Below are positions 30,001 through 36,000 of a DNA stretch of 57,924 nucleotides, piece by piece. Origin of the DNA: a bacterium (GTDB lineage: Bacteria > DRYD01); assembly GCA_039630415.1 (NCBI GenBank), contig JBCNVB010000016.1, positions 1 to 57,924 of the forward strand. The letters run 5' to 3'. The position numbers were made by a program. Numbering within the stretch: the first letter of the stretch is position 1; each line of letters opens with the position of its first letter.

Positions 30001-33000
30001 CTATCAAACTTTGGATAATAGGATAAGGGATAAATTTGCAGTAAAGAAGATAGTGGACTTTTATAAGGCTAAGGTATCTAAGTAGTTGTTTGGGAGGGGA
30101 TTAGAGGGTGTCAGAAGCAAAAATACTGATAGTAGATGATGAAAAGAATATAGTTGAACTTATCAAATTTCATCTAAAAAAGGAAAGCTATAAAATAATA
30201 GAGGCATACAAGGGGAGAGATGCAATAGAATTATACAGAAAGGAAAAACCGGATTTGATAATTCTTGATTTGATGCTACCAGATATGGGAGGATTTGAAG
30301 TATGTAAGGCAATAAGAAAGGAAAGTAAAGTACCAATTATAATGCTTACTGCTAAGGGAGAAGAGGTAGATAAAATACTGGGATTTGAACTTGGAGCGGA
30401 TGATTATTTAACAAAGCCGTTTAGTCCCCGTGAGCTAATAGCAAGGATAAAAGCTATTCTTAAAAGATCACGCATGAATCCTAGTGAAGTAAATGAGGTA
30501 TCAATAGGACCATTCAGAATAAATACAACGACTAGAGAAATATATAAGGATCAAAAATTGCTAGAACTTAAGCCTAAGGAGTTTGATTTACTTAAACTAT
30601 TCCTTACTAATCCTGGTAGAGTATTTTCAAGGCAGTATTTACTAGAGCAAATATGGGGATATGATTATTTGGGTGATACTAGAACGGTAGATGTGCACAT
30701 AAGAAGGCTTAGACAAAAAGTTGAAGACAACCCAGATAATCCGATATATATCAGAACTGTCCACGGAGTAGGATATAAATTCGTAATAGAGGAATAAAAA
30801 GATCTATATTTGTAAAATTCTTTGTATGAAAGAATCCGAAAAACGTGATAAAAATATTCTTAAAAATTTCTTGAAGTTAGTAGATACACCATTACTTCTT
30901 GTAGATAAAAAACAAAACATACTATCTACAAATGAAAACTTTCTCAAACTGCTTGAAACTACTAATATTTCGAAAAATAACGATCTAAGTCTAAGAATAA
31001 AAAGTTTCATTGAAAATCCTGAAAAATTTGTTAATGTCATAGGTAGTCAAGACAAGGGGAAATACATAAGATCTTTAACAAATAACCCTAAAATACTTAA
31101 TTTGCTTGATATTATTGAACAATTTGATTACAAATTAACTCATATAACATCAATAACTACAAATATAGGTTTTGATCAAGAATTTCTATCACATATTCTG
31201 ATTGTAAGGTTATTTCATTCAAAATCCAGCAAATCAAATGAGTATTTTTTGATAATATTTGATATAGATTTAACTAGTAGCATATTGTATAAATCTGTTT
31301 CAGTGGAACAAGATAGTCATTACATTGAAACTAGCAAAAAGTATACGGTATTAATTCAGGTGATGAACATGGTTTTGTCAGTTGTCAAAGGATTTACAGA
31401 AACTATTCTGCTTGGTAATTATCATGATATAAACTTAGTTCGTAATCTTATAAAAATTATGGATGATGAAGTTTCTAAGGGATTAAAAATTATGCTCAGT
31501 TTTAACTTATCTGATAATATAGGACCTATAAACTTTCAGAATATCAATACCACAGAGTTTTTAAAAAAGATTGTTGATAGGTATACTGAGAAAATTCTTA
31601 CTGAATATCCGAATGTAGAGTTTAGTTTTTATATTCAACCAAACATACCTAATCTTTACACTGATCCATCTAAACTTGAGTTGTGTTTGCATAATATTTT
31701 GGATAATGCTTTAAGATTTAGGGATGATAAAAAGGAGAGAAATAAAATAAAGTTTGAAGCTTTTTTTGATTCTTCGAAATCGATCATAAATATTATAATC
31801 GAAGACAATGGAATAGGTATGAATCAGGAACAGGTAAGTCAAATAGGTCAAATATTCAGAACCTTTTCTTCAAAGTCTGGTGTAGGGCTTGGTATGTATA
31901 CAACTTACAAGATTTGTAGAACGATGGGATGGAATATCCAAATTCAAAGCTCAGAGAATCAATACACCAAAGTAATACTTCAAGTACCCCATGCTTCTTA
32001 GAATATGCAGTTTGATCAAAACATAAAAAAGGTATGTTTAGTAGGATACTATGGTTTTGGAAATATTGGTGACGATATTATATTGATATCAGCTGTTAAC
32101 AAGTACGCTAATTTTTTGGGTCTTGATACACGGATATTGGTTAACGGGAATGACTACGTTGAGAAAATGTTAAAAATTTTTGGGCTTGATAATAAGGTAA
32201 TATTGTATGATAGATGGAATTTATCTCAAATAAGTGAGGCGGTGTATTATTCTGATGCAACTATCTTTGCTGGTGGAGGGATATTTCAAGATAAAACCTC
32301 CCTTAAAAGTTTTATATACTACTTCTATATAGCACTTATTTCGAAACTCATGAAAAAGAAAATTATAATAGAGAGAAATAGTATTGGAGATTTTAATACT
32401 AAGATAGCGAAGTTTCTTTTTAAGTATGTACTTAGTTGGGCTGAAAGTGTTAGTGTTAGAGATAGCTTATCACTGGATTTCCTTCAAAAAAATTATCCAA
32501 CTCTATCAAGTAAGTTCAAACTAGAAGAAGATTTTGCACTTTCTGAATTTGCTCAAATTATAAGGGATTTTTCTGAACAAATTGTCAAAGATAGTAACCA
32601 ATTTGATATCTTATTTGTGCTAAGAAAATTCGATGAAATTCAAAAGTTAAGTGATTTAATTACTAAAATAAGGGACCAGTATAAAGTTAAAATTATTGTC
32701 TTTCAAGAAAATGATCTCTATGATTTAAAGGAATATTTTCAAGATGCTGAGTATCTTGGTGAGGGTAAGGTTTTGGAAATCATAAAGTTAATAGAAAGCT
32801 CAAAACTGGTAATATCTAATAGGTTACATGGAATTGTACTTAGTAACTTGTTAGGTGTGAAATGTATAGGTATAAACATTGATTCTAAGATACGGGGATT
32901 TTGTTTAGATAAGAATATAGAGTGTTTAGATTGCAAAGATTTAGATAATCTAGCTTTATTGATTAAGAAAGTCCTTTCCTAGTTAGGGTAAATCTTCCGT

Positions 33001-36000
33001 TTTCATCTATTCTGAGTATTTTTACTACTATTTCTTCATCTATTTTGAAAACTTTTCTAGCATCTGGGATGAATCCCATATCTGCTTCTGATACATGCAA
33101 TAATCCTATTTTTCCTTCAGCTATTTTGACAAATACTCCGTATGGTTCTACCCTGACTATTTTCCCTAGATAAATTTTTCCTTCTTGGATATTGGTAATA
33201 TTTTCGATTATCTCTTTTGCTTTTTGTCCATCTTCGAGGTTTGAGGAGTAAATAATTACTTTTCCGTCTTCTTCTATGTCTATTTTTACGTTTGTTTGTT
33301 CTATAATTTTTTTAATAATTTTGCCTTGTGGGCCTATAATTTCCGGTATTTTTGAGGGTTCTATTTGGACGATAAGTACTCTAGGTGCTCGTGGTGATAA
33401 TTGATTAGGTTTACTTATTTTGGAGTTCATAATTTGGATTATGTTTTCTCTTGCTTCTTTGGCTTGGAATAGTGAGTTGTAGACTATATCGAAGGATAGT
33501 CCTTCTAATTTTGTATCCATTTGTATACCTGTTATTCCATTGGTTGTACCTGCTATTTTGAAGTCCATCTCTCCGAAGAAATCTTCAAAGCCTTGTATGT
33601 CTGTAAGAAGGATGTATTCGTTATCTTTGGTTAGTAGTCCTATCGAGATACCTGCTGCGTGGTAGGGTATTGGTACGCCTGCATCCATTAGAGCTAAACT
33701 ACTTGCACATACTGAAGCCATTGAGGTAGATCCATTTGATTCTAGAACTTCTGATACAACTCTTATGGTATAGGGGAAAGTTTGTTCTGGAGGTATCAGG
33801 GGTTCTATAGCTTTTTCTGCTAGGTAACCGTGTCCTATTTCTCTTCTTGAGGGTGGACCTATTCTTTTTGCTTCTCCTACACAGAATGGAGGAAAGTAAT
33901 AGTGATGCATAAATCTTTTTGCTTCTTCTTCGAATGTTAATCCTTCTATTATTTGTTGATCTGTTTTTGTGCCTAGTGTTACGACGGATAGAACTTGTGT
34001 TTGTCCTCTTGTGAAAATAGCGCTGCCGTGGGGGTATGGTAGAATACCTATTTCTATTTCTATTGGTCTTATTTCCCTTAGATCTCTACCATCTATCCTT
34101 TTCTTTTGATTGAAAACTTGTTCTTTTAGGAAATGTTTAAGGTACTTTTTCTTGATTAGATTGAACTGAAAATCTGAGCATTCCTCAAGTAAGTTCAATG
34201 TTTGATTGTCTTGAATATTTTGTTCATGATTGTTTTGGGCTATTTTTTGTTTGAGATTGTCTAGAGATATTTGTTCAAGATAAATATTTCTTAATTTTTT
34301 ATCTTTTTCGTTTAGGACTTTTACGGTTAATTCTGAAAAGTATTTAAGATACAATTCTTCTAGTATGGGTGGTATTTGTGTTGTAGTGGTTGGTAGTTTT
34401 TCAGGTTTGATGTCGTTTATTATTTTTTCCTGAATTTCGTTTAGTTTTTGATTAATTTTGAATGCATTTTGGATTGCTACGAATAGTTCTTCTTCTTTTA
34501 CTTCTTTTCCTTTGAATTCTATCATTGTGATTTTTTCATTAGTTGAAGCGAGGATTAGTTCTAGTTTTTCAGTTTTGAAAAGGTTAGCGCTTACTACTTG
34601 GGTGATTGGTATTGGGCTGAGATTGAGTGCCAATGAGGAGGCTATTAGTCCCAGAGTTTCTGGGTTTTCATTTATATCTGCGGAGAATACTTGTACGTAT
34701 AGATTTATGTCATTATAAAAGTCTTTAATTAGTGGCCTTATGGTTCTGTCTATTATTCTTGCTTTGATTATTTCGGAGTCTGTGGGTTTACCTTCTTTTT
34801 TTATGAAGCCGCCTGGTATTTTACCGACTGCGTACATTCGTTCTATGTAGTCAACTGTTAGGGGTGTGAAATCTATATCGTTTCTAGGTTTTTCTTCGAA
34901 GGTTACAGTTGCGAGTATCCAGCATGTCCCACTTTTTACCACTACACTACTAGCGGCTTGTTTTGCAAGAGTATTTATTTCAAAGTGAATAGTTTTATTT
35001 TCTATTTCGAAGGAGTATTTCATGGTATACTCACTCCTTGTGTTAGTTTCCATAGTCCTTTTTGATTAGTTTGTGCTTCTTTTTGAGCTTGTATAAATTT
35101 TTCTTGGTATTTGACGTTTGGTGGGATAGTATATACTTTGGCGTAGCCTTCTTTAACGAGTATGTAGTTTAGCATTTGACCATTTTCGAGATATACATAA
35201 GCTAGAATTCTTCCGTATTTATCGTGTTTTTGTATATCGTATTCTAAATAGACTATAGGTGTTATTACATTTTTTGTGAATTGCTTACTTTTTAAGCCCA
35301 TTTGAATTATTTGTTGTTCTGAAAGTTGTGTCCTTTGAGAATCTCTAGTTAACTTTTTATTTTCTGTACTTTCTGGGGTATCTATTCCTATTAGTCTAAC
35401 TGTCTGGATTTGATTATTTATTTTGACCTTTATAGTATCTCCATCGATTACTTGTACTACTGTTGCTTTATCTAGGTTGAGTTTGTTTTCGTTTGGTTTA
35501 TCTTTTGGAGCATATTTTTGTAGATAAAAAGCTATGGGTAGTATGAGTATTATCAGTAGTAGGTTAAAGAGTCTGGAGATATAATTAACTTTTTTCATTT
35601 AAGGTTTATATTATTCTTCTGAGGTTTTCAAAATCTTGGTTTTCAAGAAGGATGTTGTATATTATTTCTATTTCGTTAGGGTCTAATTTGTGTATATTAT
35701 CTTTGTACCATTCGAGTGATTGTAGTAGGAGTTTGTATGTTTCTGCTTTATTTTGATTTGATGTGTAAAGTGTTATTATGTATTTGTGTGATATTTCATG
35801 GTCATCTGGATATTTTGAAATGTATTCCCTTATTAGATTTATTTTTTGGTTGGGGTTAGTTATGGTATTTATTTTTTCTATTAGTTGTTCTTTTTCGATG
35901 GTTTGGATTTTTTGTAATGGTATTAGTGTTTGAAATTTTTCTATTAGGAAGGTATATTCTTGTTGTTTCCCTTGATCTTTGAGTTCTTGCATTTTTTGGG

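Follow-up and report, generated by a model that had tools for sequence, protein, structure and literature searches.

Translation very probably proceeds without ribosomal protein S1 in a family of outer-membrane-bearing hot-spring bacteria

In Escherichia coli, ribosomal protein S1 (bS1, the product of rpsA) is essential, and its job is to unfold mRNA. More broadly, bacteria of the Gram-negative type are regarded as unable to initiate translation without S1, above all where the mRNA has a weak Shine-Dalgarno (SD) site (PMC2760812, PMC3858243). Salah et al. (2009) place all Gram-negative groups, together with Aquificae, Thermotogae and Deinococcus-Thermus, in a class with five or more S1 domains, and describe a short, probably non-ribosomal S1 in Firmicutes, Cyanobacteria and Chloroflexi (PMC2760812). 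Loss of bS1 has been published for Mollicutes and for tiny endosymbionts (PMC7782861). Seven independent losses are reported in Mollicutes, for example in Mycoplasma genitalium and M. pneumoniae (PMC7782861 citing Grosjean 2014; bioRxiv 10.1101/2021.01.31.429008), and Nikolaeva et al. list 116 strains from nine genera as lacking bS1 among 214 genomes smaller than 1 Mb (PMC7782861).

The family studied here, the hot-spring Calescibacterium lineage, is sampled as two genera and ten species-level metagenome-assembled genomes (MAGs) of 0.9-1.9 Mb and 23-32% GC, with an estimated completeness of 71-90%. What is said of its lifestyle comes solely from the literature, which reports the lineage in hot-spring streamer communities (PMC4791363, PMC11696919) and Calescibacterium from Octopus Spring at 82-84 °C (PMC11696919). 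The window is a stretch of 57,924 nucleotides from one member, G000 (contig JBCNVB010000016.1, assembly GCA_039630415.1). Its pnp gene (32963..35053, minus strand) is an ordinary gene for polynucleotide phosphorylase (PNPase), and the actual finding is the probable absence of ribosomal protein S1 from the genome as a whole. The 696-aa ORF contains RNase_PH in two stretches (1.1e-57), the second core (aa 327-461; best PF01138 stretch) lying at 33671..34075, followed by a KH domain (PF00013 KH_1, 1.2e-8; aa 561-617, 33203..33373), both positions being computed from the ORF start, and by a C-terminal S1 domain (7.4e-12 in the Pfam scan of the ORF; aa 623-688, 32984..33187; PF00575 E 3.9e-13, 50.3 bits), all on the minus strand. 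Two RNase PH cores, then KH and S1, within about 700 aa are what defines a PNPase, and the relatives of this one, among them Candidatus Calescibacterium sp. and other MAGs, share 67-76% identity with it. All S1 and rpsA searches of the window match at 32984..33187, where the rpsA model TIGR00717 aligns only in part (model positions 269-337, E 1.5e-9) and our custom rpsA-domain profile scores 4.2e-14. Directly upstream, and apart from the S1 question, a staphylococcal-nuclease-like gene (35020..35598, minus strand; PF00565 SNase, 5.3e-27) overlaps the pnp start.

Searching G000 with PF00575 at E ≤ 10 yields exactly two matches, C8:32984-33187 in the PNPase frame and C18:50296-50493 in a 575-aa frame that is RNase E/G by Pfam (5.4e-67). 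The nine other genomes gave frames of 689-706 aa in eight (not G001) and of 568-586 aa in eight (not G002), plus a weak match to IF1 in G009 (E 0.049); across the family, PNPase is thus matched in 9/10 genomes, RNase E/G in 9/10 and IF1 once, each through a single domain. The survey's finding that S1 domains are confined to PNPase and RNase E/G (C18:50191-51915) was reproduced in all coordinates and counts, the IF1 match lying above its E 0.001 threshold, and the relaxed threshold revealed no rpsA. Tandem S1 domains, as expected of bS1, occur in none of the ten genomes at E ≤ 10. The accompanying claim, that the family has no multi-S1-domain rpsA, was upheld by every further approach. TIGR00717 at E ≤ 10 recovered nothing beyond the S1 domain of PNPase and a single RNase E/G frame, its best matches spanning one domain of PNPase (model positions about 268-348, E 4e-12 to 1.5e-9), and the S1 protein of the sister family, used as query, matched PNPase alone, in 9/10 genomes. 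Because the Pfam, NCBIfam and sister-query searches read through stop codons, a recent rpsA pseudogene would have appeared; neither a pseudogene nor a single-domain remnant was detected in the family. Custom profiles, one full-length from 30 rpsA genes and one from 169 domains, were run unfiltered against 9585 stop-to-stop ORFs (40 aa or longer) and found PNPase (2e-10 and 4e-14, respectively) and RNase E/G (0.03), followed by NusA (0.5), IF1 (1.2) and L14, with no multi-domain protein; since it matches NusA and IF1, the domain profile is sensitive even to remote S1-like folds. The cmk gene of G000 (C10:146146-146823), noted earlier for having no rpsA beside it, indeed lies between mreC upstream and an EamA fragment, AIM24 and isocitrate dehydrogenase downstream, and inspection of the rpsB neighbourhood found no S1 either. 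By contrast, rpsA is detected at E ≤ 1e-30 in 31/31 genomes outside the family versus 0/10 within it, and in 215/218 further outside genomes, each at least 90% complete. These counts support the proposal that initiation in the family runs without S1. We put the probability that the loss is real at about 85%; judged from sequence, the family would have lost rpsA outright and retained no free-standing S1-domain protein.

Whether this loss occurred within the family hinges on its one sister-family genome (G010, 43% GC), for which four S1 domains in a single 375-aa frame had been described. We recover the same protein, which is S1-like in architecture and a putative bS1. Its assignment to the sister depends on binning, because the gene sits on a small contig (5209 bp) of low coverage (about 1.7x) and its three neighbouring genes have no G000 homologue at E ≤ 1. 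Were it mis-binned or horizontally acquired, the absence of S1 could be ancestral to the whole phylum. Such an origin would fit the best NCBIfam models, which align end to end and are of the Firmicutes/Clostridia short type (NF000907 and NF005208), with the protein below all curated cut-offs (296 bits versus 624 for NF000907, 273 versus 368 for NF005208 and 229 versus 577 for TIGR00717). However, the GC content of the contig (43.2%) is close to that of the sister's PNPase contig (42.6%), coverage is similarly low in both, and a search of 5.8 billion proteins places its nearest relatives in a small cluster (55-98% identity), beyond which identity is 38% or less, a pattern that argues against recent import from a sampled donor. 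We consider an S1-less ancestor unlikely, and given how widely rpsA occurs in the other genomes, its loss is parsimonious in either case.

A second alternative is that the function of S1 is kept, either by a tandem OB-fold protein that has diverged very far or by an RNA-binding protein specific to the lineage and unrelated to S1. Help in recruiting mRNA might be expected, given that E. coli cannot do without S1 and that a strong SD site is lacking at over half of the family's genes. G000 does encode sizeable proteins without a Pfam match (for example at 35606-37207 of the window, C12:14773-16155 and C16:17904-20144), and the one-domain S1 proteins of Mollicutes are reported to share only about 27% identity, so that S1-like proteins can diverge far (PMC6705787). 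Against this, the custom domain profile that reaches NusA and IF1 yields no further candidate, and a screen of 1098 G000 proteins for internal repeats, in which all 30 rpsA positive controls scored at least 77, left no tandem-repeat protein unaccounted for in the size range of S1: 30 of the 40 top-scoring proteins were checked against Pfam, and 27 fall into families with other repeats or duplications. No Pfam family matches the remaining three, which do not look like S1: the first starts with a hydrophobic segment and has short, irregular repeats, the second is of low complexity and rich in Gly, Met and Pro, and the third is a 193-aa ORF. Likewise, the unannotated protein adjoining pnp looks by eye like a helical repeat protein, and the ORF upstream of rpsB has an aromatic-rich, strand-like C-terminus ending in Phe, typical of an outer-membrane protein. 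Cold-shock-domain proteins are also absent, with none in the five genomes of the order searched. A hidden substitute of this kind thus seems distinctly improbable to us.

The remaining alternative holds that the organisms have rpsA and that unassembled or mis-binned contigs removed it from all ten MAGs. Ribosomal-protein genes are reported to be missing from 20-40% of near-complete MAGs, a dropout attributed to effects of codon usage and tetranucleotide composition on binning (Mise and Iwasaki, PMC9723686). Beyond the 71-90% completeness of the family's MAGs, 16S rRNA is missing from G000 and was found in only 4/11 genomes of the order, so certain loci are evidently lost from these assemblies, and public four-domain S1 proteins exist that are 55-75% identical to the sister's and whose host genomes are unplaced. 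Yet rpsA is absent from every one of the ten MAGs, which are independent and come from several studies, while uS2 is found in 10/10 and PNPase and RNase E/G in 9/10 each, and the product of (1 - completeness) across the ten puts chance loss at about 6e-9, assuming independence. Moreover, G000, G003 and G004 are contiguous (20-31 contigs, some longer than 200-400 kb), with the ribosomal-protein cluster well inside a 93-kb contig, and rpsA is usually a lone gene flanked by non-ribosomal genes, unlike the ribosomal-protein-only contigs that are lost in binning. For these unplaced S1 relatives, FYMINK/GARP ratios are 1.07-1.37, which resembles the 43%-GC sister and falls no higher than the 5th percentile for G000 proteins (1.33; median 2.42), and 0/40 fetched metagenome loci resemble the family (lowest GC 36%, full-length S1 identity at most 34%). 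Because uS2 is present throughout the family and G000 has 42 tRNAs covering all 20 amino acids as well as a tmRNA, incompleteness is an unlikely cause of the missing gene, and systematic loss of rpsA from all ten assemblies can be set aside as highly improbable.

If rpsA is indeed gone, the question is how the family initiates translation. The 16S 3' end is GGATCACCTCCTTTCT in G003, G004 and G008, the anti-SD is the canonical CCUCC, and GGAGG peaks at -15 to -10. That highly expressed genes carry strong SD sites, as the survey had it, is borne out around the L14 gene in the ribosomal-protein cluster, where 18/19 ORFs have a duplex dG ≤ -10, but does not extend genome-wide, with strong sites at only about 33-44% of G000 genes. 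Starts in these counts are crude (the longest ORF, or the best of the first 50 codons); by the latter measure, strong sites precede 44% of genes in G000 (control 12%), 50% in G008 (123 genes; control 14%) and 88% in the S1-bearing sister (113 genes; control 40%). Since SD use is lower in the family than in the sister, the loss of S1 is not compensated by extra SD sites, and more than half of the family's genes, those without a strong site, initiate by some route that SD pairing does not explain. The 30S subunit would carry uS2 and a canonical anti-SD but no bS1, and neither bS21 nor uL30 turned up in the genomes of the order that were searched. SD pairing would drive initiation where a site exists, at ribosomal-protein genes and roughly a third to half of all genes, and elsewhere the subunit may bind A/U-rich leaders directly. 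At about 80 °C, a temperature taken from the lineage's reported habitat and not from G000's own record, and at 32% GC, leaders would be almost unstructured: the predicted MFE at 80 °C is at least -1 kcal/mol in 98% of 456 start windows. The mRNA-unfolding task of S1 could then be dispensable, and the loss may be the last step of a reduction from six domains in most diderms through four in the sister to none here. This thermal argument is permissive only, because Aquificae, Thermotogae and Thermus are described as retaining a long S1 (PMC2760812). We regard it as roughly an even call whether nothing replaces S1, heat and AT-rich mRNA sufficing for a platform without bS1 or bS21. That reading is the likelier one when set against a lineage-specific protein, unrelated to S1, that would sit on the uS2/mRNA-entry platform of Calescibacteriaceae ribosomes and recruit SD-poor, A/U-rich leaders, the kind found at over half of the genes; such a protein is a long shot, and if real would mean that a free-living diderm thermophile has exchanged the largest ribosomal protein of bacteria for a non-homologous one.

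The outer membrane of the family, already proposed in the survey, is supported by Omp85/BamA (PF01103), the single marker behind this reading, in 4/4 family genomes tested and in the sister (E 1.5e-33 to 1.6e-37, frames of 683-709 aa); G000 encodes Omp85, AcrB and T2SS-F. To our knowledge, all S1-less bacteria described so far live as parasites or endosymbionts and have collapsed genomes. The family would extend this list by a thermophilic lineage of 1.4-1.9 Mb that has Omp85, in which bS21, uL30 and cold-shock proteins were likewise not detected and SD use is lower than in the sister that has S1. Confirmation on native ribosomes would make it a natural test case for a minimal bacterial initiation platform, and a test of whether RNA unfolding by S1 is dispensable when temperature and base composition leave leaders unstructured. 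In practical terms, rpsA is unusable as a universal marker in the Calescibacterium group, and some of the 10-13% by which the best assemblies seem incomplete may reflect genes that are truly absent.

Compared with known systems, the family resembles Mollicutes in the clade-wide disappearance of multi-domain rpsA, the missing uL30 and the low GC content. It differs from them in that Mollicutes are wall-less, monoderm-derived parasites, mostly below 1 Mb and without bL25, whereas the family has Omp85 and bL25 in genomes of 1.4-1.9 Mb; some Mollicutes, moreover, are reported to retain a one-domain S1 (PMC6705787), and the family has no free-standing S1-domain protein. With the tiny-genome bacteria it shares the same undetected trio of bS1, bS21 and uL30 (PMC7782861). 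Those organisms are described as obligate endosymbionts below 1 Mb in which bS1 loss correlates with bL25 loss (Pagel; PMC7782861), whereas the family's assemblies span 0.9-1.9 Mb, bL25 (PF01386) is present in 4/4 members tested (G000, G003, G004 and G008) as well as in the sister, the tmRNA and full tRNA set are kept, and no sign of host dependence appears among the features examined. The short S1 of Firmicutes is the best model match of the sister's four-domain protein, which fits the described domain-loss trend, but Firmicutes, Cyanobacteria and Chloroflexi keep the short gene and the family has none. An Omp85-bearing thermophile lineage with four or zero S1 domains therefore departs from the picture drawn by Salah et al. 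(PMC2760812). Two other families in our sampling (G061 with G214, and G134) also lack a multi-domain rpsA, with no TIGR00717 match at 1e-20 and single S1-domain matches only in genomes that are at least 98% complete, 1.8-2.1 Mb in size and Omp85-bearing; unlike the present family, they keep small free-standing S1-domain proteins (frames of 113-139 aa). As a separate observation, the S1 copy of G134 comes after a small ORF that by eye resembles an FtsB/DivIC-type cell-division protein. Because bS1 loss is published in Mollicutes and tiny endosymbionts and recurs in these two Omp85-bearing families, the loss in the Calescibacterium lineage is rarer than usual yet not unprecedented.

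The pnp ORF (32963..35053, minus strand) encodes a 696-aa PNPase with the complete domain architecture of that enzyme, in which Pfam identifies RNase PH in two stretches (1.1e-57), KH at aa 561-617 and, at the C-terminus, S1 at aa 623-688 (7.4e-12). Its surroundings hold no translation genes, but rather a histidine kinase, a polysaccharide pyruvyl transferase, a staphylococcal-nuclease-like gene and a 533-aa protein. The nuclease-like gene, which shares 34 bases with the start of pnp, and the 533-aa gene ahead of it occupy window positions 35020-37207 on the minus strand. The 533-aa protein has no Pfam match and by eye appears to be a helical repeat protein, and together these genes may form an RNA-turnover operon. 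The sole Rfam match within the window is a tRNA gene at 6194-6268 on the plus strand. The pnp locus is thus ordinary, and the point of interest is a gene absent elsewhere in the genome, rpsA, which encodes the multi-domain ribosomal protein S1 (bS1).

The genome comprises 1,404,407 bases in 31 contigs at 31.9% GC, with an estimated completeness of 89% and contamination of 1.7%. Its PNPase is 67-76% identical to those of Candidatus Calescibacterium sp. and hot-spring MAG relatives, which places it in the Calescamantes/EM19 lineage. Calescibacterium is described in excerpts of two reports, which make no mention of S1, as an aerobic heterotroph of streamer communities at about 80 C (PMC4791363, PMC11696919). 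We took the 11 genomes of its order, ten in the family f1 and one (G010) in a sister family, as all species of the phylum in the genome collection, the next level up being the domain. Our literature searches returned no relevant paper linking Calescamantes with ribosomal protein S1, and none reporting S1 loss in the lineage.

Our comparisons indicate that rpsA was lost lineage-wide in f1, a reading to which we assign a probability of roughly 0.85, and they support the survey's finding that the family translates without S1. At E<=1e-30, rpsA was recovered in 31 of 31 genomes outside f1 versus none of the ten within it, and in a wider sample of completeness at least 90% it was found at E<=1e-20 in 215 of 218 non-f1 genomes. 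Incomplete assembly would have to account for the same gene being missed ten times over, for which the chance is about 6e-9 with the completeness values treated as independent, this independence being the weak point of the estimate. Other components are recovered consistently, including uS2 in all ten f1 genomes and both bL25 and Omp85 in each of the four tested, the last of these agreeing with the description of f1 as diderm. The G000 assembly itself (the genome of this window) yields 42 tRNAs covering all 20 amino acids, plus tmRNA. Ribosomal-protein genes in MAGs are subject to a binning artefact, as excerpts of PMC9723686 describe, and the location of the G000 ribosomal-protein cluster inside a 93-kb contig counts against such an artefact here.

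The S1 domains of f1 had been placed in PNPase and RNase E/G only, a distribution that we reproduced with the S1-domain model PF00575 at the permissive threshold of E<=10. In G000 there were just two matches, one in the PNPase frame and the other in a frame of 575 aa on contig C18 that Pfam identifies as RNase E/G. Among the other nine f1 genomes, a frame of PNPase size was matched in eight (absent from G001) and one of RNase E/G size in eight (absent from G002), the sole addition being the 84-aa IF1 of G009 at E 0.049. The rpsA model TIGR00717, also at E<=10, gave one-domain partial matches only, in PNPase frames and in a single RNase E/G frame (E 0.003), and the sister family's 352-aa S1 as a query found PNPase only, in nine of the ten genomes. 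These searches were made in six frames reading through stops, and a recent rpsA pseudogene should therefore have shown up.

Two local profiles, run unfiltered on all 9585 stop-to-stop ORFs 40 aa long or more, extended the search to more remote similarity. The full-length profile, built from 30 rpsA sequences taken from other genomes, matched PNPase at 2e-10, with the next match at E 1.3. The single-domain profile, built from 169 domains of the same 30 genes, matched PNPase (4e-14), RNase E/G (0.03), NusA (0.5), and IF1 and L14 (both 1.2); its recovery of NusA and IF1 indicates that it is sensitive to remote S1-like folds. Neither profile returned a multi-domain S1 candidate, and the best weak matches were identified as NusA, IF1, L14, a STAS protein and a methylase. 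Gene neighbourhoods in G000 gave the same answer. The usual neighbour of rpsA is cmk, and its flanks are mreC, an EamA fragment, AIM24 and icd, with no rpsA beside it, as the survey had stated. The rpsB region (C3:28705-32095, locus L082) likewise holds no rpsA candidate: rpsB is not followed by tsf but by a 401-aa F420-0:gamma-glutamyl-ligase-like gene, and upstream lies the C-terminal part of a large protein whose end resembles an outer-membrane beta-barrel.

As a test independent of S1 similarity, we scored internal repeats in 1098 G000 proteins of 150-1200 aa, with the 30 rpsA controls all scoring at least 77. We listed the top 40 by score, proteins below this list scoring 77-91, and ran 30 of these 40 through Pfam. 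Twenty-seven belong to other repeat or duplicated families, among them nine beta-propeller DUF5122/SBBP proteins as well as TPR, HEAT, ankyrin, UvrA, Der, T2SS-F, AcrB and ClpB proteins. Of the three without a Pfam match, one has a hydrophobic N-terminus followed through its sequence by short repeats of irregular pattern, one is a 193-aa ORF, and one is a 746-aa protein (C16:17904-20144, minus strand) with a long Gly/Met/Pro-rich low-complexity stretch of GMPG-type repeats between helical regions. Separately, the nine beta-propeller proteins among the 30 scanned reveal a large paralogous family in this genome, with four members clustered at C5:11340-20291 and the others at C22:7139-8560, C13:2980-4197, C2:225-1640, C4:58058-58579 and C24:15633-16733.

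The survey's report of four S1 domains in one 375-aa frame of G010 was reproduced. The best model matches of this protein are to short Firmicutes/Clostridia-type S1, each under the curated cut-off. Its contig, 5.2 kb long with a coverage of about 1.7x, has a GC content of 43.2%, compared with 42.6% for the G010 PNPase contig, and the order as a whole is sharply split by GC, with f1 loci (L003-L011) at 23-31% versus 43% in the sister family (G010 loci L012 and L069). Among 5.8 billion proteins the G010 S1 has four relatives at 98, 75, 57 and 55% identity, followed by matches of at most 38%, and the composition of these relatives is sister-like or more GC-rich, unlike f1. As a query against the genome contig collection it matched only itself, and a metagenome scan with two peptide patterns only, a weak test, gave 40 loci, none f1-like, with full-length matches of at most 34% identity. 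None of the three genes beside it has a G000 homologue (tblastn E<=1), so that a deletion scar is not locatable. The sister family therefore likely keeps a short S1, although, given these neighbours and the low-coverage 5.2-kb contig, this depends on binning; were the assignment wrong, the absence would be phylum-wide. The two families also differ in uS2 (loci L076-L086), where an 11-residue internal insert and an acidic C-terminal tail of about ten residues, both present in the sister's protein, are missing from all ten f1 proteins. Other absences are shared with the sister family. No bS21 (PF01165) was found in any of its 11 genomes, and neither uL30 (PF00327) nor cold-shock-domain proteins (PF00313) in the five tested, sister family included. 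Both bL25 and uS2 are retained. Small RNA-chaperone and platform proteins are generally scarce in the lineage, and among these absences that of bS1 alone is specific to f1.

How does initiation proceed in f1? G003, G004 and G008 have a canonical 16S 3′ end (…GGATCACCTCCTTTCT), G000 having no 16S gene in its assembly, and GGAGG is at its maximum at -15 to -10 upstream of starts. The survey's remark that highly expressed genes carry strong Shine-Dalgarno (SD) sites holds in the ribosomal-protein cluster, since in the unbroken run of 19 ORFs that surrounds the L14 gene (C3:42162-51006) 18 show SD pairing with dG<=-10, the start being sought within the first 30 codons, but it does not extend genome-wide. 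With strong SD defined as dG<=-8, internal controls and crude gene starts, the longest-ORF start carried one in 33% of 1238 G000 genes (control 4.5%), 42% of 123 genes of the f1 genome G008 (control 8%) and 58% of 113 genes of the S1-bearing G010 (control 15%). Taking the best of the first 50 codons gave 44% (control 12%), 50% (control 14%) and 88% (control 40%), respectively. SD use is therefore lower, not higher, in the S1-less family than in its sister. Non-SD leaders are A/U-rich and G-poor and lack a sharp leaderless-promoter signal, TATAAT-like hexamers upstream of 151 non-SD genes being only about 2-fold enriched with no sharp peak.

For 456 windows around starts (-30 to +30), the predicted folding energy averaged -5.6 kcal/mol at 37 C, and at 80 C 98% of the same windows were at or above -1 kcal/mol. 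S1 has RNA-unfolding activity according to excerpts of PMC3858243 and PMC6237739. At the reported habitat temperature and 23-32% GC, f1 leaders would be single-stranded unaided, so that the unfolding activity of S1 may not be needed, with SD pairing presumably retained where output must be high. Because other thermophiles retain a long S1, as excerpts of PMC2760812 indicate, the argument can show how the loss would be tolerated but not what caused it. SD pairing does not compensate for S1 loss in f1, and more than half of the genes would have to initiate by another route.

Loss of S1 is not unique to f1 and is already known elsewhere. Excerpts of PMC7782861 report that bS1 was lost independently seven times in Mollicutes and that, among genomes smaller than 1 Mb, it is missing from 116 strains belonging to nine genera, and in M. 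genitalium and M. pneumoniae its absence is reported together with that of L25 and L30 (bioRxiv 10.1101/2021.01.31.429008). In contrast to these published cases, f1 has Omp85, genomes of 1.4-1.9 Mb and a retained bL25, and comes from hot-spring communities. Salah et al. place all Gram-negative groups and deep thermophiles in the class with at least five S1 domains (PMC2760812). In our wider sample, three of the 218 genomes, from two families (G061 and G214 in f53, G134 in f126) that lie outside this phylum, have no multi-domain rpsA and show single S1-domain matches only. All three have Omp85, completeness of at least 98% and sizes of 1.8-2.1 Mb, G134 being a single 1.8-Mb contig. The PNPase of G134 matched 581 stretches, its own not among them, and its ArgG has relatives at 92-93% identity, with thermophilic Bacillota at about 60%. 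These three genomes retain free-standing S1-domain proteins (frames of 113-139 aa), whereas f1 has none. The family f1 is a clean, family-wide case of an S1-less and bS21-less diderm thermophile without SD compensation.
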